Below are positions 7,407-64,000 of a stretch of DNA of 64,000 nt, piece after piece. This stretch comes from Patescibacteria group bacterium (lineage in GTDB: Bacteria; Patescibacteriota; Microgenomatia; Levybacterales; UBA12049): positions 43,029 through 107,028 of the forward strand of contig JBBTTO010000003.1 in NCBI GenBank assembly GCA_038064195.1. The letters are read 5' to 3'. Under the pieces are notes generated by a model, which was not told the DNA's origin, searched no databases, and saw only the letters and a list, made by a program, of their open reading frames with translations. Every line of letters starts with the position of its first letter. Position 1 is the first letter of the stretch. The translations under genes and the position numbers were made by a program.

Positions 7407-9612
<2,206 letters not shown>

Positions 9613-35540: not shown

Positions 35541-35613
35541 GCCGACTTAGCTCAGCGGTAGAGCAGTTGTTTTGTAAACATCAGGTCGTCGGTTCAAATC
35601 CGACAGTCGGCTC
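35541..35613 (+). tRNA. tRNA-Thr (anticodon UGU)
   Basis: Hand-folded: acceptor GCCGACT/AGTCGGC, D arm GCTC..GAGC, anticodon loop TTTGTAA, T arm GTCGG-TTCAAAT-CCGAC. Confidence 0.8.
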
Positions 35614-35617
35614 CCAG

Positions 35618-35704
35618 GCTGGGTTGGCAGAGTAGCAATCGCATCTGGCTGTAGACCAGACGTCCGAAAGGGCTCCGGGGGTGCAATTCCCTCACCCAGC
35701 ACCA
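35618..35704 (+). tRNA. tRNA-Tyr (anticodon GUA), long variable arm, CCA encoded
   Basis: Acceptor GCTGGGT/ACCCAGC, anticodon stem TCTGG/CCAGA with loop CTGTAGA, a long variable arm, and 3' ACCA. Confidence 0.7.
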
Positions 35705-35724
35705 AACGTTTTGAGCCGGTGTAG

Positions 35725-35797
35725 GCCCAAATGGCTCAGTGGTAGAGCGAGTTCTTGGTAAGAACTAGGTCGCGAGTCCGATTCTCGCTTTGGGCTC
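35725..35797 (+). tRNA. tRNA-Thr (anticodon GGU)
   Basis: Acceptor GCCCAAA/TTTGGGC, D arm GCTC-AGTGGTA-GAGC, anticodon arm AGTTC-TTGGTAA-GAACT, T arm GCGAG-TCCGATT-CTCGC. Confidence 0.8.
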
Positions 35798-35799
35798 AA

Positions 35800-35925
35800 A
35801 AATGTGGGTCAGTGGAGCGGACCGAACAAAGTGAAGGAGCTCGCCTGCTTGACAGGGCGGAATGAGCAAGTTCATGAATAAGAACTAGGTCACGGGTCCG
35901 ATTCCCGTCTTCGGCTCAAAGCTAT
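35800..35925 (+). pseudogene. tRNA-like element: a D-arm-like segment plus a copy of the tRNA-Thr(GGU) 3' half with compensatory T-stem changes and an 8-nt anticodon loop; no pairing acceptor 5' strand
   Basis: GGTC-AGTGGAGCG-GACC (D-like), then a 45-nt spacer, then AGTTC-ATGAATAA-GAACT-AGGTC-ACGGG-TCCGATT-CCCGT-CTTCGGC-TCA. Compare with the upstream tRNA-Thr. Confidence 0.3.
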
Positions 35926-35975
35926 TTTATTTCTGCCTCAAATACTGTATAATATCTCTCTAGAGGAAAATTTGT

Positions 35976-36152
35976 ATGCCAAAAAAAGGTGAACATAGAA
36001 TTATTATTGGACTCGTCTGTTCGGTTTGCAAAAACCGCAATTACGTCTCACAAAAAAATAAGCTTGAGACGCCTGACAAGTTGAAATTTAACAAATTCTG
36101 CAAGCATTGCCGTAAAGTAACTGAGCACAAAGAGTCTGAAAAATTGAAGTAA
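35976..36152 (+). CDS. rpmG: Ribosomal protein L33
   Basis: MPKKGEHRIIIGLVCSVCKNRNYVSQKNKLETPDKLKFNKFCKHCRKVTEHKESEKLK: a CxxC...CxxC zinc ribbon plus the L33 pattern. An SD (AGAGGA) and an extended -10 (TGTATAAT) lie upstream. It is below the ORF-track size cutoff. Confidence 0.8.
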   Translation: MPKKGEHRIIIGLVCSVCKNRNYVSQKNKLETPDKLKFNKFCKHCRKVTEHKESEKLK

Positions 36153-36298
36153 AACTTCAATTTATGTTTAGGGCATAGAGTACCCCAAGGGTACTAGCTA
36201 CACAGTAGCGGCGCACGCGCATAGAGTTAATGGTAACCTATGTGCTTTTTTTGTATAATGAACCCTACGCGCTAAGCTCTTTGCGCTTAGCTATACCT

Positions 36299-36371
36299 AG
36301 GGGTGTAGTGAAATGGTTATCACAGCAATCTCCAAAATTGCTTTTCACGGTTCGAGTCCGTGCGCCCCTGC
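36299..36371 (+). tRNA. tRNA-Trp (anticodon CCA)
   Basis: Acceptor AGGGGTG/CGCCCCT, D arm GTGA-AATGGTTA-TCAC, anticodon arm GCAAT-CTCCAAA-ATTGC, T arm CACGG-TTCGAGT-CCGTG. Preceded by an extended -10 TGTATAAT. Confidence 0.8.
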
Positions 36372-42702: not shown

Positions 42703-43500
42703 ATGTCAAAACGTCGCGGTATTTTCTCTGTCTTCATTTTTTTCTTTATCCTGTCTCTTATCCTTTACGGAATTTCACTAACCTCCGTCGGTCAAGCAGG
42801 AGTAGGACTGACTGAAGTTGCTCTCGCTCCTCTTCAAGAGGGAGTCGCGTCAGTTCTGGCCTTATCAAAAGGAGAGCTCACGCCTCTGCAAAAGCTGGAG
42901 GAAGAAAATAGACTACTCCGCGCGCAGTTGGCAAAGATCAAAGATCAGGAAAAAGAAATTCACGCACTCCAGGATCAATTTAACACACAACAGCCCGTCT
43001 CCAACCAGCTTCTCCCCGCGCGAATTGTCGGATTTAAAGGACTTATCCCCGGTCTTTCAATGCCCGAGCAAATTGTCATTGATAAGGGAGAAAAAGACAA
43101 TGTTCATGTCCAAAATATCGTCGTCTATAAAAACTTTCTGATAGGTAAAATCAGCAGACAAACAGATCACCTGTCTGTTGTTGATTTGTCATTTAAAAAA
43201 GGTTTTTCAATTACCGCCATTACTTCTCCAACAAACGCGATTGGTATTGTCAAAGGACAAGGACAGGGGACACTGCTTTTGGATAATGTTGTTTTGTCTG
43301 AAAATCTGCAGAAAAATGATAGTGTTGTCACGCAGGGCACTACTGATCTGGATGGTAGTGGTGCCGTGCCCGGCCTTGTTATAGGTAAAATTCTCTCAAT
43401 TGATAAAAAACCAAGCAGTCTTTTCCAGACCGCCAAATTGCAGCCTTTTTTTGATATCAATCACCTGACAACTGTCTTTATCATCAAGCCCGCTTTGTAA
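42703..43500 (+). CDS. mreC: Rod-shape protein MreC
   Basis: N-terminal TM helix, coiled coil (LEEENRLLRAQLAKIKDQEKEIHALQDQ), a beta-rich C-terminus, and its position after mreB. Confidence 0.7.
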   Translation: MSKRRGIFSVFIFFFILSLILYGISLTSVGQAGVGLTEVALAPLQEGVASVLALSKGELTPLQKLEEENRLLRAQLAKIKDQEKEIHALQDQFNTQQPVSNQLLPARIVGFKGLIPGLSMPEQIVIDKGEKDNVHVQNIVVYKNFLIGKISRQTDHLSVVDLSFKKGFSITAITSPTNAIGIVKGQGQGTLLLDNVVLSENLQKNDSVVTQGTTDLDGSGAVPGLVIGKILSIDKKPSSLFQTAKLQPFFDINHLTTVFIIKPAL

Positions 43501-53964: not shown

Positions 53965-54552
53965 ATGACAAAACAGACTCAGCTTGACAAGATTACTAGG
54001 GAAATTGAAGAGTGTAGGATTTGTAAAAAAGAGAAAATCGGAGTTGCTGTGCCGGGTGAGGGTAATCCTGATGCAGATATAGTTTTTATTGGTGAGGCGC
54101 CGGGGAAGCAGGAATCGGTATCAGGTAGGCCATTTATTGGCAGATCAGGGCAACTTCTGCGGAGTTTGATCCGGGAGATTGGCCTTGATGATGTGAAAGA
54201 TGTTTATATTACCAGCCCGGTTAAATACTTGCCGCTTAGAGGAACTCCGACTTCTGAAGATATTGCCCACGGTCGTAGCCATTTACTGGGACAATTGGAA
54301 GTAATTCAACCGAAATTTGTAGTTTTACTGGGTCGAGTGGCAGCCGAAGGGGTACTTGAGAAAAAGGTTTTTGTAACAAAAGAACACGGGGAAGTGATTG
54401 AAGAAAAAGACGGCCCGTCTCGCCTCGGCGAGCCGAGGCGGAGAATTAAGTATTTTTTGACCTACCACCCGGCAGCAGTTCTGAGATTTCCGAACAAATT
54501 TAAAGCATTAATGAAAGAAGATTTTATTAAAGTTAAAAAACTACTGAAGTAA
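53965..54552 (+). CDS. Uracil-DNA glycosylase, family 4-like
   Basis: ECRICKK (Fe-S Cys), GEAPG, GRSGQLL and the C-terminal HPAAVLR motif. Confidence 0.75.
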   Translation: MTKQTQLDKITREIEECRICKKEKIGVAVPGEGNPDADIVFIGEAPGKQESVSGRPFIGRSGQLLRSLIREIGLDDVKDVYITSPVKYLPLRGTPTSEDIAHGRSHLLGQLEVIQPKFVVLLGRVAAEGVLEKKVFVTKEHGEVIEEKDGPSRLGEPRRRIKYFLTYHPAAVLRFPNKFKALMKEDFIKVKKLLK

Positions 54553-54553
54553 C

Positions 54554-55411
54554 TTATTTATTGCGCAGAAAAGCATAAACTTCTGTTCTGGAAGTTGGGT
54601 TATGCGGACTGCCATCAAATCTTCCCAATAATCCTTGGATTACTTTCTCACCTTTTTCATTGATTTCCTGACTCAATTTCCGGCAAGCAAAATTACTGTT
54701 TTTAGGAAGGAAGTAGCCCTTACCGTAATAGGCTGTTCTGAATAAATCCCCAATCATTATATATTCCTGCACATGTTCGTTTGTACGGAAATCTTCAGTC
54801 CAATCGACATCCACATTCATCCAACAGCTAATGACAATTGTTGGAGTTTTGGCATAGTTTTTAAGGCAATCTTTGTAGTCTAGATTCAAGATCTGGTCTT
54901 TTGGATCTTTATTTGTTTCTCCGCTTTTCTCCCAGTTTTTATTATCACTGGCAATAATAGTTACTTTTTTTGCATCTATTAACAGAGACAGTTTTTGTTT
55001 GAGAAAATGCGATAGTCGTCCATCACCGGCCCCGACTTCAAGAATTGTGACGGGGGAGGAGAAAGTCGTGTAGTACTCATTAATTCTGACTGAGAGGTAG
55101 CTAACTAATGAATCAATAAACTCTTGAGTATAGACTTGATAGACATTATTTTTATACAGAAATTTTGTAAACTCAGGATCAAGATACGGCAGCTCCTCAC
55201 TATTTGTCGGTAAAGAATCGCTGCGCGGGAAGACAGCTCTTATCTCAGCAAGTGTTGGAAGCGAATAATAATCTGTTATTTTTAAGGTGTCAGTTGTTGG
55301 TTGCATATCTATATTGTACTCCTTAGTAACTTTATTTGATTTCCAGAGAATAAAGAGGTCTTTTATCGAAATGAAATGCTTCTTTCCAGCCCAAGTTCTC
55401 AGATCTGGCAT
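54554..55411 (-). CDS. Class I SAM-dependent methyltransferase (last gene of the ATP-grasp operon); likely start MQPTTD at about 55306
   Basis: Motif I ILEVGAGDGRLSHFL. Its start overlaps the stop of the upstream paralog unless the internal Met is used. Confidence 0.6.
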   Translation of the reverse strand: MPDLRTWAGKKHFISIKDLFILWKSNKVTKEYNIDMQPTTDTLKITDYYSLPTLAEIRAVFPRSDSLPTNSEELPYLDPEFTKFLYKNNVYQVYTQEFIDSLVSYLSVRINEYYTTFSSPVTILEVGAGDGRLSHFLKQKLSLLIDAKKVTIIASDNKNWEKSGETNKDPKDQILNLDYKDCLKNYAKTPTIVISCWMNVDVDWTEDFRTNEHVQEYIMIGDLFRTAYYGKGYFLPKNSNFACRKLSQEINEKGEKVIQGLLGRFDGSPHNPTSRTEVYAFLRNK

Positions 55412-56219
55412 CGTAGAGTGTCGCTCCCAGTGAGAGAGCTTGAGTCATTTTCTGGAGGATCAGGAATTTGCCGAGACCATTGATTGAGCTATCTGTCCCG
55501 GAATTAAGCCCCACATATGTACCCTTATAAAAAATTGACATACCGATTGATACTTTTTTACCATTGAGAGATATTGAGATTATCTGCATTGGAAAGAGAG
55601 TCATGATTTCTTTAAAAAATTCGAGACGATGCGGTCTGAGGAATCCTGATTCTTCCCCAAAGCGCATCTTATTCAACTCAACCATCAAATCAAAGTCTGA
55701 AAAGACATTGTATTCGACTTTTATGTTCTGCTCGTGCAACTTTCGTAGCTGAGCTCTTAAATTCTGTCGAGGTTTGGCATTCCAGTACCTCTCAAGGTAG
55801 TCATCAATACTCGTAATCTTACTCAACGGAAATTCATATTTATACTCCTGGATCTGTACATTAGGGATACCCGGGATGTCGTCCGTCATCCATTCAAGCA
55901 GTGCAGGCCGATCAATTTGTTTGATAAGAGCTGCTTTTAGAGATTCGTAGCCGGGTTTGACATACATTTGATTGTCTTCCATGTGACTTCCCCCAAAAAA
56001 TTGCAAAACATTAGAATCAGAATTCCACTGGAGAGGAAGTACCCCGACGGCTTTCTCATCCTCAAATGCAGTAAAGAAAAAGAGGGGATAGTTAAAGAAT
56101 TTGTAGTAGGTATAGCGATAAGCCCAGTCGTCAGTTAAGCGAGCACTAGGTGAAAGTTCTCTCCATATTTCTTCAGCAGTTGCTAGATCAGTGATAGTTT
56201 TAAATGTTATATTATTCAT
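55332..56219 (-). CDS. FemAB/CelD-like (BioF2-like GNAT fold, PF13480-like) acyl/aminoacyl-transferase, paralog B
   Basis: The hallmark basic helix NAKPRQNLRAQLRKLHEQ (S-K-x-R-K-N-L-R-R-x-x-R-K-L type), and an N-terminal domain sharing L..W.ELSP...DDW.FRYTYYK.FNYPL with the upstream paralog. Confidence 0.55.
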   Translation of the reverse strand: MNNITFKTITDLATAEEIWRELSPSARLTDDWAYRYTYYKFFNYPLFFFTAFEDEKAVGVLPLQWNSDSNVLQFFGGSHMEDNQMYVKPGYESLKAALIKQIDRPALLEWMTDDIPGIPNVQIQEYKYEFPLSKITSIDDYLERYWNAKPRQNLRAQLRKLHEQNIKVEYNVFSDFDLMVELNKMRFGEESGFLRPHRLEFFKEIMTLFPMQIISISLNGKKVSIGMSIFYKGTYVGLNSGTDSSINGLGKFLILQKMTQALSLGATLYDARSENLGWKEAFHFDKRPLYSLEIK

Positions 56220-57229
56220 GCTTGATCACTCCTTGTATCACGAAGGTATTGCGGTTTTTTTAAGAGATTAAAATCAGTTTTCCAGCCAAAAGCACCTGAC
56301 CCACCTGCGTCGTATATCTTCATTCGTTCTTTTATAGCTGCATCGATTTTGAGCAACGTAATATATTTGCCAAGGTTTTTGACCTCTGGGTTGTAACCAG
56401 TATTAATTCCATAACAAATATTTTTATAGAATAGTACAAAACCCACACCTTGTTTTTCTCCGTTCAGCGTGACGGTAATAATTTTTGAGGGATATTTAGT
56501 AGCTATTTCACTAAAGAATTCGTCCCAGTGAGGGCGTTCATTAAAACTTGAGGTATTACCAAAACGAATTTTATTCCAGTATTCAAGAACCTTAAGATCT
56601 TCGACATTGTCATAACTTACTTCAACAGTATTGTTTTCTGTAAGCTTTCGTATTTGGGAGTTGAGGTTACGGCGACTGTCTCCGTCCAGGTACTTGGTTA
56701 CAAAGTCGGAGTAGTTAGTCATACCTGCAAGCTCTATGTAATAGTTATAGTCATGGATGGTTGTCTGAGCAAGAGACCCCATGTCAGGGCGCATATATTC
56801 AAGGACTGCGGGACCTTCTAGTTGTTCTAAAAATTGAGGTATTGTTTCTTCATAACCGGGTTTATAAAAAATTGCATTGTCTTCCATATAGCCAAACCCG
56901 GCAAAAAAATCATAGCAGCCTTTGGTCGGGTCCCACATCAGAGGGAGGAGCCCGACTAGCTCTCCCTGGTCATAACCGGCAATAAAGTTCAAAGGATAAT
57001 TAAAGTATTTATAATACGTGTAACGAAAATCCCAGTCGTCATAGAGGACTTTATTTGGAGAAAGAGATTTCCAGGCTTTCTCTGCTTCTTCGAGGTTAGA
57101 TATGTTTCTGAAGGTCAAGTTTTTCATACGGAGTAATGGTAAACCTGACTTCAGAGAATAGACGTTCCAGGTTGCTGGTTGCTTGTTTGGCATCCTTACC
57201 CGTTGCGGTAATCCAACCCATATAATCAA
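56216..57229 (-). CDS. FemAB/CelD-like (PF13480-like) acyl/aminoacyl-transferase, paralog A; likely start MKNLTF at about 57127
   Basis: DGDSRRNLNSQIRKLTEN motif. Co-linear similarity to paralog B. 4-nt overlap (ATGA) with paralog B. Confidence 0.55.
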   Translation of the reverse strand: MIIWVGLPQRVRMPNKQPATWNVYSLKSGLPLLRMKNLTFRNISNLEEAEKAWKSLSPNKVLYDDWDFRYTYYKYFNYPLNFIAGYDQGELVGLLPLMWDPTKGCYDFFAGFGYMEDNAIFYKPGYEETIPQFLEQLEGPAVLEYMRPDMGSLAQTTIHDYNYYIELAGMTNYSDFVTKYLDGDSRRNLNSQIRKLTENNTVEVSYDNVEDLKVLEYWNKIRFGNTSSFNERPHWDEFFSEIATKYPSKIITVTLNGEKQGVGFVLFYKNICYGINTGYNPEVKNLGKYITLLKIDAAIKERMKIYDAGGSGAFGWKTDFNLLKKPQYLRDTRSDQA

Positions 57230-58415
57230 AATCCTGAGGTGGCAGGAGAATCTTATCGCCTATGTTTTTAGTAAGGCGAAGTTCAAAGAGATGGAAATCA
57301 GTGTGAATTTTTTGATCAATATCAATCTTGCGAACGAGTCCTTCTTTAATTGGTAAGAAATATTTTCCTTCTAGATGAATTAAAGGTTGGGATGGTTTGC
57401 GAACTTTAAGCGGCTCACCGACAGCAATTTTGGCCGCATTTTCGATCAAATCTACGTTCCAGGCATGCTTGACAAAGCTATATACCTCATCTCCACCCAT
57501 GCGTAAATTAATCTCAATCGGGACAGGCCCTACGGATGAAGACTTAGCTTCAAAATGGATAACCCCGTTTTTGATCCCCAATTCGGAGAGTACCTTGGTA
57601 GCCATTCTAACAAGAGCATCCTGTTTGGCCTGAGGCAGACGAGAAGGGATAGCCTGTCCTGTCTCTATAAAGTAAGGCTCATGAGTCTGAAAGTTGTCAC
57701 TGATAGACCAGAACTTGACCTCACCATCTTGAAGGAGCATATCGATATCAACTTCAGTTCCATCAATATATTCCTCGACAAATACTTCCACATTTTCCCA
57801 TTCAGGTGCAAGCCAAAAGGAAGTGATGTAATGTCGGATTGCATCATAGCCCTTTTCCAGCTCTTCTATAGTGTCTACACGGATAACAAACGCACTACAT
57901 GCACCGTACATAGGCTTAATGACGAGGGGGAACTGTAGCTTTTGTGGAACATCGAGGATATCCTCTCTATTTTTTAAGGTATGATGACGTGGTGAGGGGA
58001 GACCGTGTTCACTACATACCTCTCGGAAGGTAAATTTATTCTTAATTTTAGCCACTGACTCAAAAGGATTACCTGTCCAGTCAAAAGTATCGGTGATTTT
58101 TGCTGTCAGGAGGATTGCTTCTTCCCAGAAAGTAAGAGTACCATCCAAATGATTACCGGGAGTATCTATGTAGGCCTTGATTTTAGTCAAACATTCTTCA
58201 TAGTTAGTAAGATCAGCTACTATCCATTCGTCAGCATAGACATCAGGGCAACTCTTCTCGGTATCTAAGATCACCACGTAATAGTCTAATGATTTCAGTT
58301 TTTTTAACACGAACTCTTTGGAAGGATACGCACTTCTAACTAAAAGGATATGTTTTGGATTGAGTGGTTTCATAATAGATAATAAATATCTTTCGTCTAG
58401 AGCAAAAATGCTCAA
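57096..58415 (-). CDS. ATP-grasp ligase of the L-amino-acid-ligase / D-Ala-D-Ala-ligase type
   Basis: FPLVIKPMYGACSAFVIRVD (Lys loop), VEEYIDGTEVDIDML and IEINLRMGGDEV (Mg/ATP motifs). 439 aa. The internal start MKPLNPKHILLV is possible. Confidence 0.7.
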   Translation of the reverse strand: MSIFALDERYLLSIMKPLNPKHILLVRSAYPSKEFVLKKLKSLDYYVVILDTEKSCPDVYADEWIVADLTNYEECLTKIKAYIDTPGNHLDGTLTFWEEAILLTAKITDTFDWTGNPFESVAKIKNKFTFREVCSEHGLPSPRHHTLKNREDILDVPQKLQFPLVIKPMYGACSAFVIRVDTIEELEKGYDAIRHYITSFWLAPEWENVEVFVEEYIDGTEVDIDMLLQDGEVKFWSISDNFQTHEPYFIETGQAIPSRLPQAKQDALVRMATKVLSELGIKNGVIHFEAKSSSVGPVPIEINLRMGGDEVYSFVKHAWNVDLIENAAKIAVGEPLKVRKPSQPLIHLEGKYFLPIKEGLVRKIDIDQKIHTDFHLFELRLTKNIGDKILLPPQDFDYMGWITATGKDAKQATSNLERLFSEVRFTITPYEKLDLQKHI

Positions 58416-58520
58416 TTATGCACTGTTCGGATGAAAAAGGGGAGAAAAAGAGGCAGAGGAGCAAACTCCCTCTAAAGAAGGGGAAAGTATAACTGTGTCG
58501 ATATTATTGCCTGTTTTCAT
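58416..58520 (-). CDS. Possible 34-aa leader/precursor-like peptide ORF immediately upstream of the ATP-grasp gene
   Basis: MKTGNNIDTVILSPSLEGVCSSASFSPLFHPNSA read by hand on the minus strand. Its stop abuts the ATP-grasp start. No clear SD. Confidence 0.12.
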   Translation of the reverse strand: MKTGNNIDTVILSPSLEGVCSSASFSPLFHPNSA

Positions 58521-58725
58521 AGGTTCGCTCTGTACTAAGACAGGTAGAGAACGTAAAAAAGTATTATACACTATTGTCAAGGGAAAATCAAGCCTATAGT
58601 GAAGCTAAATTATTACAGGATTACGGAGTAATTTTTCACAATCCCGAAGCAATTTGTTATAAGATATTTTCATAGACCACTTTTTTGGATTAAAAACGTC
58701 CCAAAACATAATCTATTTCTGAGCC

Positions 58726-58753
58726 TTGACAATCTCTAAAATGAAGCTATAAT
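58726..58753 (+). promoter_or_regulatory. Candidate rRNA promoter (TTGACA-16nt-TATAAT) with an AT-rich upstream element
   Basis: Seen directly, about 260 nt upstream of the 16S 5' end. Confidence 0.45.
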
Positions 58754-59009
58754 AGCTAATACGTATGTAGGGATAAGACATGGAATCTTTCTGTGACTCG
58801 CTCTCTAGCGAGTTTTTTTGTCCTTACCTACTCTTCATTACCTCTTAACTTGTCCGATGTTCATCGGACTAACAAGTAGTAATTCGAACTTTGACAGTCA
58901 GAAAGTGGTAGGGAATATTTAGGACTTCAAACTTCCCTTTAGCAGTGCACACGCTTTGCTATTTTTTGTTTGAAGACCGTCAAAGTACTTTGACGTAAGT
59001 TGAAGTATT

Positions 59010-60503
<1,494 letters not shown>

Positions 60504-60781: not shown

Positions 60782-62005
60782 TTAGGAGTTTTTTTGAGCT
60801 GTAATGAGGTTGGTATAGATATCTTCAAGTTTGTTAACGTATTCCTCAATACTGAACTGTTTGGCCATTTTGGCACTTTCTTTACCGTATTCCAGACGTT
60901 TTACATCATCTGAGAGAAGATCACAGATTTTTTCGGCAAGCATTACGGGATCTTTAGGTGCCAATTCACCATTTTTACCAGGGATTACAAGATCCACGAC
61001 GGCTTTATCATCAACTGCGACAATTGGCTTGTGGGCGGTAAGTGCCTCGATAAGAACTGTCGGGAAATTATCGGTATCACTCGTGAAGAAAACAACGTCC
61101 GCTGCATGATTGGCGCTGGCAATCATATTCGGATCGACAAAACCTGTAAAAATAATATTATTCTGGAGCTGTAACTCAGCCGTCATTTTTTCAAGAGCCG
61201 GTCGCTGTGTCCCATCTCCTAAGATAGCTAAGTGGGCCTCCGGAAATTTCCTGACGACAAGTGCCCAGCTCTTGATCGCCACGTCAATATTTTTGGCTTT
61301 TTCAAGCGAGCCGACAATAATACTGAGAGGGTGTCTGGGATTGATATCCCATTTTTCATAAAAATCTTTGTCAGTTATTTTTTGGGCTATTTTCTGATCG
61401 ATAGCATTAGGGAAGTGATCGATTTTGGCACTGACATGGGCATGTTCGAGTTCATCAACCGCTTTAAGCGAAGGTGCGAGAATAAGATCAAATCTATTGT
61501 AGTAATTCCTGGTCACTGCATCGGCAATCGGCCGGGTAAAAGCCTGTGCGCGAGGGAGCATCCAAGCGAAATACTGGCTGACAAATGTGTGGATCGTAAC
61601 AACTGAGGGTATCTTGAGTTTTTTGGCAATGCGGGTGGCCATAAAGCCGCTGAAAAAAAGGTGACTGTGTACAATGTCGGGCTTAAGAGCGAGAATTTGC
61701 TGCTCAAGTTTTCTGTTATAAGGAACAGCTAAGGCATCATCGGCGTGAGTGTAGGTTTTAACTGACGGGAGGTAGAAGATATCGTCCCCTGTCTTCTGGG
61801 TTTTGGTGACACGCGGGGTCAGGATAAGGACCCTATGACCTCTTTTGCGTAATTCATCCTGGAGCATGATCACATGTCTGACAATACCGTTAACATGCGG
61901 GGGATAATGATCGGTGGCAAAGAGGATGGTCACGAATTTAATTATAGATGAATGAGAAGAAATTGAATAGGGAAATGTGGGTAGCCGTGGAATCGGACCA
62001 CGCAC
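60782..62005 (-). CDS. GT4-family glycosyltransferase (RfaB/GT1-like); probable start GTG at about 61933 (VTILFATDHYPP)
   Basis: N-terminal ILFATDHYPPHVNGIVRHV and C-terminal EALTAHKPIVAVDDKAVVDLVIPGKNGEL (E-x7-E region), typical of GT4 retaining glycosyltransferases. Confidence 0.75.
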   Translation of the reverse strand: MRGPIPRLPTFPYSISSHSSIIKFVTILFATDHYPPHVNGIVRHVIMLQDELRKRGHRVLILTPRVTKTQKTGDDIFYLPSVKTYTHADDALAVPYNRKLEQQILALKPDIVHSHLFFSGFMATRIAKKLKIPSVVTIHTFVSQYFAWMLPRAQAFTRPIADAVTRNYYNRFDLILAPSLKAVDELEHAHVSAKIDHFPNAIDQKIAQKITDKDFYEKWDINPRHPLSIIVGSLEKAKNIDVAIKSWALVVRKFPEAHLAILGDGTQRPALEKMTAELQLQNNIIFTGFVDPNMIASANHAADVVFFTSDTDNFPTVLIEALTAHKPIVAVDDKAVVDLVIPGKNGELAPKDPVMLAEKICDLLSDDVKRLEYGKESAKMAKQFSIEEYVNKLEDIYTNLITAQKNS

Positions 62006-62102
62006 CTCGTTCTTATCAGGAACGCGTTCTAACCGATGAACTAGCTACCCTCAAGTCAGGCTCTTATTCTAGCAGATTTAAACCCTGTTTGGAAAGACGA
62101 TG

Positions 62103-62175
62103 AGGCGCGAATCGGATTCGAACCGACGAATGGCTGTTCTGCAAACAGCTGTGTTAACCGCTTCACCACCGCGCC
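62103..62175 (-). tRNA. tRNA-Cys (anticodon GCA)
   Basis: The reverse complement folds: acceptor GGCGCGG/TCGCGCC, anticodon arm GCTGT-TTGCAGA-ACAGC, T arm GTCGG-TTCGAAT-CCGAT. Confidence 0.8.
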
Positions 62176-62956: not shown

Positions 62957-64000
62957 CTATTTTTCTTTCTTCCAAAACTCTTCCTGGCGGCAGAGGTTTT
63001 TACGATCATTTTTATCAGCCAAAATCTGCTTGACTGCTTCTTCCAGGAAAATTGTATTTTGTGAACCCTTAGCCAGGACGATGCTATTCTTTACCAGATT
63101 TTCTTTCATAAATTCCCCGGCACGAATTGAAGTATCAAACCAGCGAATTTCCTTGAAGAGTGACTCGTTTAGTTGTACAACGGGTAAAACATATTCCCGA
63201 GTAAGGGGCCCAACAAGATACAGGTAGTCAACAATCCCTATCAATTTGACAGCTACTTCCTCATGCTCTATCTTGCTCTCTTCACCTAATTCGCGCATAT
63301 CTCCAAGGAGAAGTGTTACCGGTCGATCGGTTTCTTTTTTAAGAGTATCTACCAAATCGAGAAAAGTACTAATCGATGCTTTGGAGGCGTTGTAGGTGGA
63401 ATCAATGATCATGGTATTATTAATACCGCTAAAAAGACTGGAGCGCCCTTTAGGCAATACATAGTTTTTTTCAAGTGACGCTTTGATTTGTTCTAGAGTT
63501 AGTCCCGTTTGTAATCCAACCAGGATAGCAGCAGCAAAAACCTCGCGATATTCACGAGGAAGGATGAATCGGGGGAAATTAACAGTAACTTCTTCGCGTT
63601 TATCTTCAGTTTTAACGTAAAAAGCAAAAGATGTTCCTTTAAGACTTACTTTATAAAGACCATAGGAAATGTCGCAGCTATTTTTAGTGCCGAATGAAAG
63701 AAGCTTTGTACTCGTCGGTGTTTTACTTTTAATTTGTTCTGATACATATTCATCATCTGTATTATAAATTCCGATAGCACATTGAGATTTCGTAATTATT
63801 TTGGTATCTTCCTCGGCAATTTTCTGAATTATCAATTTAAGTCTCTCTTCTTCGCTTAGCGCATTGCGATTATCGCTTAGCGTCTTGTCAAATTGCAGTG
63901 AGTGAGTTGCCGAGACATTAAGTGAGACAGCAATGTGAGGTTTGAGAATTGTGAGCAGATACCCCATATTCTTAGGTGGGTCAGGTTCATCTATACCCAT
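62957..64000 (-). CDS. murF: Mur ligase family (UDP-MurNAc-tripeptide--D-Ala-D-Ala ligase-like), 5'-partial at window edge (N-terminus beyond 64000)
   Basis: Mur ligase central/C-terminal motifs TMIIDSTYNASKAS and LLLGDMRELGEES. The frame stays open to the window edge, so the track's Met at 64000 is artificial. Confidence 0.7.
   Translation of the reverse strand: MGIDEPDPPKNMGYLLTILKPHIAVSLNVSATHSLQFDKTLSDNRNALSEEERLKLIIQKIAEEDTKIITKSQCAIGIYNTDDEYVSEQIKSKTPTSTKLLSFGTKNSCDISYGLYKVSLKGTSFAFYVKTEDKREEVTVNFPRFILPREYREVFAAAILVGLQTGLTLEQIKASLEKNYVLPKGRSSLFSGINNTMIIDSTYNASKASISTFLDLVDTLKKETDRPVTLLLGDMRELGEESKIEHEEVAVKLIGIVDYLYLVGPLTREYVLPVVQLNESLFKEIRWFDTSIRAGEFMKENLVKNSIVLAKGSQNTIFLEEAVKQILADKNDRKNLCRQEEFWKKEK

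Follow-up and report, generated by a model that had tools for sequence, protein, structure and literature searches.

Gene content and organization of the operon

The 64,000-nt stretch analyzed here (hereafter the window; positions 43,029 to 107,028 of contig JBBTTO010000003.1) comes from a ~1.08-Mb Patescibacteria contig recovered from Hainich groundwater. Four co-directional open reading frames (ORFs) occupy positions 54554-58415 of its minus strand, if the longest TTG-started form of the first is counted. They encode an ATP-grasp ligase of the L-amino acid ligase (LAL) type, two paralogous Fem-like transferases with tandem GNAT domains (GNAT1 and GNAT2, also denoted GNAT-A and GNAT-B), and a class-I methyltransferase-fold protein (MT). 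The ligase and transferase genes recur together in other Patescibacteria, and the operon may direct the stepwise assembly of a short peptide.

Gene limits were set by the N-termini of orthologs together with published gene calls (Table 1). Orthologs of the ATP-grasp protein begin with MK..K..LL(I/V)VRS(G/A)YPSKE, which places the start at the ATG rather than at the TTG of the longest ORF; the 439-aa protein of the original prediction, made from the window's sequence alone, exists as an ORF but is shortened accordingly. GNAT1 starts at 57127 and not at 57229, and the ATG of MT is preceded by AAGGAG 12 nt upstream. The ATP-grasp and GNAT1 genes overlap by 32 nt, an overlap found identically in four relatives (L001, L020, L021, and L023; L-numbers denote loci of relatives compared with the window), and GNAT1 and GNAT2 overlap by 4 nt. 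GNAT2 and MT are separated by a 25-nt spacer that contains the AAGGAG, so that of the four tightly packed genes first described as overlapping their neighbors by 4-32 nt, the genes and two of the overlaps stand and the third junction does not.

Table 1 Features of the operon and its surroundings in the window.
Feature	Position	Strand	Remarks
LAL-type ATP-grasp ligase	57096..58373	-	425 aa; ATG 58373
GNAT1 (= GNAT-A), Fem-like tandem-GNAT transferase	56216..57127	-	303 aa; positional orthogroup 1
GNAT2 (= GNAT-B), paralogous Fem-like tandem-GNAT transferase	55332..56219	-	295 aa; positional orthogroup 2
Accessory class-I methyltransferase-fold protein (MT)	54554..55306	-	250 aa; ATG 55306; in no curated family
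Promoter-like site of the operon	58563..58591	-	TTGATT-17-TATAAT, TGTATAAT extended -10; consensus scan, predicted only
Conserved box ACTATAGGNTTGA	~58588..58600	-	upstream of/overlapping the -35
Leader	58374..58562	-	~190 nt; 34-codon mini-ORF, terminator-like hairpin, T-runs
Mini-ORF	58416..58520	-	34 codons; MKTGNN...NSA
Terminator-like hairpin of the leader	58454..58474	-	GC-rich; T-runs to ~58431
UDG gene	53965..54552		convergent with the operon
Promoter-like site upstream of 16S	58726..58753	+	TTGACA-16-TATAAT, perfect
Terminator-like hairpin before 16S	58795..58814	+	GACTCGC...GCGAGT + T5
16S rRNA gene	59009..60501	+	divergent from the operon
GT4 glycosyltransferase gene	60782..62005	-	longest ORF, GTG-started
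tRNA-Ile(GAT), tRNA-Cys(GCA)	61977..62175	-	
MurF-like Mur ligase gene	62957..64000	-	partial, runs off the window
tRNA cluster Thr(TGT), Tyr(GTA), Thr(GGT), Trp(CCA)	35541..36371	+	

An LAL-type ligase of an uncharacterized clade

The ATP-grasp protein matched Pfam ATP-grasp_4 (PF13535) with 86 bits against a cut-off of 27 and LAL_C2 (PF18603) with 38.4 bits against a cut-off of 29.4. Its nearest solved relative was the L-amino acid ligase BL00235 (3vot, E 5e-28), followed by the L-amino acid ligase 4wd3 and by BacD, which bears out the LAL-type assignment made in the original prediction. The nucleotide/Mg and acyl-phosphate motifs are intact in the translation (PLVIKP, FVEEYIDGTE, and PIEINLRMGG), and the region of the last (PIEINLRMGGDE, E-x-N-x-R-x-G-G) aligns with IEVGARIGGSG of BL00235.

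None of the characterized families accounted for the protein. Against the NCBIfam models it scored far below the cut-offs of DdaF (52 of 840 bits), BacD (31 of 850), Ddl (42 of 243), PurK (24 of 318), and CPSase (44 of 1027); it was likewise below the carboxylase cut-offs, and the CPSase-like PRK12767 models gave 42 bits, far under theirs. A canonical Ddl, PurK, or CPSase, as well as a characterized LAL equivalog, was thereby ruled out, including the Ddl, PurK, and carboxylase identities that had been named beforehand as the ones that would overturn the prediction. The LAL domains and the low equivalog scores together therefore indicate an LAL-type ligase of an uncharacterized clade. ATP-dependent ligation of unprotected amino acids is its predicted activity. 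The family is widespread in Patescibacteria and also occurs in a Woesearchaeota record, forming a clade that spans Patescibacteria and DPANN.

Two paralogs of a narrow Fem-like family

GNAT1 and GNAT2 are 40% identical to each other. Both matched Acetyltransf_6 (PF13480) above its cut-off (GNAT2 with 32.7 bits), and GNAT1 reached 26.3 bits against FemAB_like (PF04339), just under the cut-off of 27. The AlphaFold model of the GNAT protein (pLDDT 93) showed a fusion of two GNAT domains separated by a cleft. Its best matches among solved structures were Sbb17/Sba18, then FemX (including FemX_Wv) and FemA, all of which form peptide bonds in an aminoacyl-tRNA-dependent manner. The acyl-CoA enzyme MshD (14.4) and aminoacyl-phosphatidylglycerol synthases (about 13.9) came after these Fem-type matches, L/F-transferase and Ate1 were also among the structural matches, and Foldseek returned the same ranking.

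An exhaustive profile search against 1.84 billion entries retrieved 738 representatives of the family at E<1e-3, of which 247 passed E<1e-30, and nearly all of the 150 best listed members were ~290-330 aa long. The GNATs are thus a narrowly distributed Fem-like family, small and uniform, that lies outside Pfam FemAB. The paralogs had been described originally as FemAB/CelD-like proteins carrying a basic helix; fold, motif, and helix were recovered, membership of the canonical Pfam FemAB family was not, and the profile searches did not place the paralogs in an unrelated family.

Conservation across 145 representatives was concentrated in a few residues. Lys283 was invariant (145/145) and Trp282 was kept in 141 of the 145 (97%), followed by Arg35 and Trp32 (97% each) and Asn84 and Ser193 (94% each). 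W282-K283 precedes the last strand, and this W-K motif is kept in both paralogs. The surrounding C-terminal pattern YDAGG-SGAFG-W-K-x-x-F parallels LYDLGG...YVF304-K305-HVF of FemX_Wv, VKFKKGY of FemA, and WAFKKVW of FemX_Sa. Lys305 is the key catalytic residue of this enzyme class (PMC12945691, PMC9351520).

Basic helices are present in both paralogs (DSRRNLNSQIRKL and KPRQNLRAQLRKL), the former being read by helix H149-165 of the GNAT model. Over the 145 representatives, helix residues 147-167 had a median net charge of +4, whereas the rest of the protein was acidic and the overall pI was 5-6. A basic helix on domain 2 of FemX is the proposed site for the tRNA acceptor stem (PMC12945691). 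The beta4-alpha3 loop of the GNATs reads NLGKY instead of Q/RxxGxG/A. On the basis of the model and the conserved residues, aminoacyl-tRNA is probably the acyl donor of the GNATs.

If the GNATs were acyl-CoA-dependent N-acyltransferases instead, the product would be a methylated dipeptide carrying an N-acyl or acetyl group, such as a compatible solute. An analogous compound, N-acetylglutaminylglutamine amide, is made by a GNAT/ATP-grasp enzyme. The Pfam match is indeed to a family described as "acetyltransferase (GNAT)", and a pI of 5-6 is atypical of an RNA-binding protein. However, the conserved W-K motif, which parallels the Fem catalytic position, the conserved basic helix, and the NLGKY loop all speak against it, and two or three successive acylations of one small product are hard to rationalize. 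We therefore regard acyl-CoA dependence as improbable.

Gene order is conserved and partners are exchanged in relatives

The LAL gene lay directly upstream of the GNAT gene whenever the GNAT was at least ~39% identical and enough flanking sequence was available, which was the case for the window and for L001, L002, L003, L009, L011, L020, L021, L023, L027, and L035. Two more distant loci (L016 and L033) encode an LAL with a fused Ddl-like domain and, after it, two GNATs. In total, ~13 Patescibacteria loci have an LAL followed by one to three GNATs, and the co-location in relatives on which the original prediction depended was thereby found. Matches from the metagenome scan lay mostly on contigs too short for gene context.

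A distance tree of the GNATs resolved three groups that match gene position. The window copies fell into the first and second of these, GNAT2 grouping with the second-position copies of L001, L009, L011, L020, L021, and L023. The three positional orthogroups therefore suggest an old duplication with specialized, probably successive, roles, which fits the sequential addition of residues first proposed for the duplicated genes. A more distant GNAT clade (~32-35% identity) is solitary and occurs in other contexts. In L012 and L018, the neighbors of such a gene (at ~8000-8950) encode an Asp/Glu racemase, an M20 peptidase, and an unknown ~410-440-aa protein. In L013 (5997-9632), the GNAT gene is flanked by those of a CDP-alcohol phosphatidyltransferase and a nucleotidyltransferase, and a class-V aminotransferase gene is found just upstream.

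The LAL family swaps interchangeable peptide-bond-forming partners, which are Ddl-like domains, further LALs, or GNATs. The C-terminal Ddl-like halves of the LAL-Ddl fusions scored ~130 bits against the Ddl cut-off of 243; a bona fide Ddl, which would have tied the family to peptidoglycan, was thus ruled out. In L022 (977-10600), two LAL-Ddl fusions flank an unknown 457-aa protein and a radical S-adenosylmethionine (SAM) protein resembling lysine-2,3-aminomutase, followed by a SET-domain protein and an M17 aminopeptidase; this cluster hints at beta-lysine-containing, methylated peptides in relatives. L046 (4413-8344), from a Peregrinibacteria genome, has three tandem LAL-type ATP-grasp paralogs and no GNAT genes. 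The exchange of partners and the positional orthogroups together therefore point to stepwise assembly of short peptides.

The methyltransferase-fold protein is accessory

MT has a Rossmann-like, seven-strand class-I methyltransferase fold, with motif I reading ILEVGAGDGRL and an invariant Asp after strand 2. Its best Pfam match was TRM13 (E 0.22) and its best NCBIfam matches had E-values of ~0.02, far under the cut-offs. No precomputed Pfam domain of an MT family was found for its 23 homologs, and no solved structure matched it at the sequence level.

The gene is absent from L001, L020, L021, and most other relatives, and is reduced to fragments in L011; in L023 it is placed between GNAT2 and GNAT3. 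A 2-nt deletion in an A5 run (~54702-54703 in the window) frameshifts MT in two independent assemblies of the window's own species (L006 and L008), which are otherwise identical over the gene. The deletion represents either natural loss or phase-like variation. MT is accessory and not a core member; the class-I fold of the predicted SAM methyltransferase was upheld, and its place in the core of the operon was not.

Outside the operon, the MT family stands alone in L025. In L024 (1-6693), a member of it is the last gene of a cluster next to mnmA that otherwise encodes two MATCAP-type (PF08014) peptidases, two RimK/Ddl-like ATP-grasps, and a pair of unknown proteins of 255 aa. Such company would agree with post-translational peptide tagging, in which residues are added to a protein C-terminus, N-terminus, or Lys, as by RimK, TTL, L/F-transferase, or Ate1. 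The fold and the catalytic Lys are also those of L/F-transferase and Ate1 (PMC9351520), and the L024 cluster brings the MT family together with RimK-like ATP-grasps and two MATCAP-type carboxypeptidases. However, the ATP-grasp of the window is LAL-like and not RimK/TTL-like, and no conserved candidate target gene was found within the cassette, which makes tagging very improbable.

Promoter and leader

A promoter-like site with an extended -10 was predicted upstream of the operon (Table 1), and relatives carry TGCTATAAT at the equivalent place. The conserved box at its -35 also occurs in the leaders of L001, L009, and L011. The terminator-like hairpin of the leader was found as a scan match, folds at -8.6 kcal/mol, and lies ~90-100 nt downstream of the extended -10 promoter. 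The same place in the leaders of L001 and of L009/L021/L023 holds a hairpin and CCCYTTTTTYC, with different stem sequences. In L001 and L009, a second TTGTATAAT precedes the start codon directly. The leader matched no Rfam family even at E<=5, and a riboswitch or T-box was rejected on this ground.

The mini-ORF had been thought to abut the ATP-grasp start. The 34-codon ORF exists; it ends 42 nt before the supported start, has no obvious Shine-Dalgarno sequence in the leader, runs through the hairpin, and is not conserved. Short leader ORFs are also present in L001, L003, and L009 (and in the L009/L021/L023 group), while L002 has no such leader. The window peptide shows no similarity to those of L001, L009, and L003, the last of which is unrelated. 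The "IPFF" common to L001 and L009 is the product of the conserved CCCTTTTTC T-run, which the window reads in a different frame. Because the peptide is unconserved and the hairpin and T-run are shared in different frames, the conserved element is RNA or DNA and not a peptide. Judged from sequence, the hairpin and T-run could be an attenuator, or the end or terminator of a separate small transcript.

These observations bear on a pathway for a peptide made by ribosomes and modified after translation, in which the mini-ORF would be the precursor modified by the ATP-grasp enzyme. Its appeal lies in the short leader ORFs of the window and three relatives, and in the ability of PGM1-type LAL relatives to ligate ribosomal peptides. 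However, the dissimilar peptides, the origin of "IPFF" in another frame, the lack of a Shine-Dalgarno sequence, the passage of the ORF through a terminator-like hairpin, and the absence of such a leader from L002 all disfavor it. We rejected the mini-ORF as a precursor or leader peptide and consider such a pathway extremely improbable.

Genomic surroundings

The operon is flanked by a convergent UDG gene and a divergent 16S rRNA gene, and a perfect TTGACA-16-TATAAT upstream of the 16S rRNA gene points away from the operon, in agreement with the reported divergence from the rRNA promoter. The cassette sits in a conserved housekeeping neighborhood (16S, UDG, SpoU, TopA). A MurF-like Mur ligase (TIGR01143, 130 bits) lies ~4.5 kb from the cassette across the 16S rRNA gene, and L020 has a Mur ligase at a similar position. 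PADLOC models matched none of the four proteins and viral contigs held no relatives, and a defense system or a phage origin was rejected on these grounds.

Several other features were seen around the 16S rRNA gene. A terminator-like hairpin stands between its promoter-like site and its 5' end, and L001 has a similar hairpin (CTCGCC TCGG CGAG + T6 on the rRNA strand). No 23S rRNA gene follows; the next gene encodes the GT4 glycosyltransferase, and the tRNA-Ile and tRNA-Cys genes come after it. The longest ORF of the glycosyltransferase, which is GTG-started, overlaps tRNA-Ile, so this gene probably starts further downstream. A cluster of four tRNA genes was located elsewhere in the window (Table 1).

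Comparison with known systems

We found no description of this cassette in the literature. The operon resembles the routes to Gram-positive peptidoglycan side chains that employ FemX/FemA/FemB and ATP-grasp D-Asp ligases. Unlike the Fem enzymes, the window GNATs are outside Pfam FemAB, cannot be detected by sequence, and have no coiled-coil arm, and the ATP-grasp enzyme is of the LAL type, its gene being translationally coupled to that of the first GNAT within a single operon to which a methyltransferase is attached.

The Orf11-type enzymes Sbb17 and Sba18, from streptothricin-related BD-12 biosynthesis, are peptide synthases that depend on aminoacyl-tRNA and have a small molecule as substrate; at 286 aa, they share the compact size of the GNATs. 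However, identity is only ~9-14%, and their genes belong to secondary-metabolite clusters of actinomycetes, whereas the window comes from a reduced Patescibacteria genome without streptothrisamine pathway genes. The dehydrophos pathway offers another likeness, since two Fem-like transferases add residues successively from aminoacyl-tRNAs and a SAM methyltransferase, DhpI, tailors the product. The two tRNA-dependent transferases are DhpH-C and DhpK (PMC12945691). The window differs in that it has no phosphonate genes, that the first bond would come from the ATP-grasp enzyme, and that the proteins are not orthologous.

The ATP-grasp enzyme itself is like BL00235, BacD/YwfE, 4wd3, and DdaF in its ATP-grasp_4 and LAL_C2 architecture, its E-x-N-x-R-x-G-G motif, and its size of 425 aa. 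It differs from characterized LALs in scoring 31-56 bits against equivalog cut-offs of 302-850, and members of its clade frequently carry a fused Ddl-like second ligase or have Fem-like genes after them. The novelty lies in a conserved operon of LAL and Fem-like genes, in a Fem-like family that is new and narrow, and in the unclassified methyltransferase, while the chemistry itself is familiar.

Proposed mechanism and the nature of the acceptor

Our leading but tentative interpretation, to which we assign somewhat less than an even chance, is that the enzymes of the operon form an assembly line that works without the ribosome and builds a short peptide on an acceptor that is small and soluble. 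The LAL would activate a carboxylate as an acyl-phosphate and form the first amide bond with ATP, yielding a dipeptide or an aminoacyl-amine. GNAT1 and then GNAT2 (and GNAT3 in relatives) would each lengthen the growing product by one amino acid, taken from aminoacyl-tRNA and joined to the free amine, with Lys283 in the role that Lys305 has in FemX, and MT, where present, would cap the product with a methyl group. The scheme draws directly on the families and folds of the proteins, the order and overlaps of the genes, their positional orthogroups, and the invariant motif; we infer from them the aminoacyl-tRNA donor, the order of steps, the methylation, and the choice of a small molecule over a cell-wall precursor. 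A small soluble acceptor is favored because the ligase is of the free-amino-acid type, because the enzyme that matches best in structure works on a small molecule and is equally compact, because the alternative partners of the LAL resemble metabolite pathways, and because a tailoring methyltransferase is attached.

Peptidoglycan side-chain (cross-bridge) synthesis is the most serious rival, though we judge it unlikely. The Fem-like paralogs would then take residues from aminoacyl-tRNA and attach them to the diamino acid at the third position of UDP-MurNAc-pentapeptide or lipid II, and the ATP-grasp enzyme would add or supply a further residue, as the D-Asp ligases of enterococci and lactococci do. 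Peptidoglycan side chains are known to be made in two ways, which correspond to the two enzyme superfamilies (PMC2655667). The top structural matches of the GNATs include FemX_Wv and FemA, and the paralog number of one to three resembles FemX/A/B. The vertical inheritance of the cassette in a housekeeping neighborhood without exporter or regulator, the MurF-like gene 4.5 kb away and its counterpart in L020, and the Asp/Glu racemase adjoining distant solitary GNATs (L012, L018) also agree with a cell-wall role. However, the ATP-grasp enzyme is LAL-type with LAL_C2 and far under the PRK12767 cut-offs, and the GNATs form a very small, patchy family (see above) outside Pfam FemAB. Moreover, a methyltransferase is not known to have a role in cross-bridge synthesis, and the alternative LAL partners, be they three tandem LALs or an aminomutase with a SET protein, look like parts of metabolite pathways.

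It should be noted that several observations weigh against the assembly line on a small acceptor. No exporter, regulator, immunity gene, or dedicated aminoacyl-tRNA synthetase or tRNA was found beside the cassette, and a housekeeping neighborhood without exporter suits a cell-envelope role at least as well as it suits a metabolite. MT is dispensable, as it is frameshifted in conspecific strains. For the GNATs, there was no match to PF02388 (Pfam FemAB) at E<=1, no solved structure was matched by sequence in phmmer and profile searches, and the profile comparison to FemA was insignificant (hhalign E 0.39), with only the basic helix (GLRKRNTKKVKK) being paired. K283 parallels K305 of FemX by motif and position, and pairwise and profile alignments of this motif are not significant or robust.

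Implications for Patescibacteria

Patescibacteria have ~1-Mb genomes with almost no recognized biosynthesis, and a conserved multi-enzyme peptide-forming operon is one of few candidates for a specialized product in this group. More broadly, though with less confidence than we place in the assembly line itself, Patescibacteria and DPANN may share a modular short-peptide route independent of nonribosomal peptide synthetases, in which a lineage-specific LAL is combined with Ddl-like ligases, LALs, or Fem-like transferases. The operon of the window would then make a methylated tri- or tetrapeptide from charged tRNAs, which these cells, dependent on a host, might use for signaling, as a solute, or to modify their surface; we regard this wider proposal as speculative and rather unlikely as a whole.

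If the Fem-like paralogs use aminoacyl-tRNA, the operon would represent a compact hybrid of ATP- and tRNA-driven peptide assembly, and the paralogs would add to the Fem superfamily a new, narrowly distributed branch whose catalytic lysine is invariant. A peptidoglycan target would reveal branched cell walls in an uncultured radiation, and a free peptide as the target would provide a candidate molecule for host-symbiont interaction.

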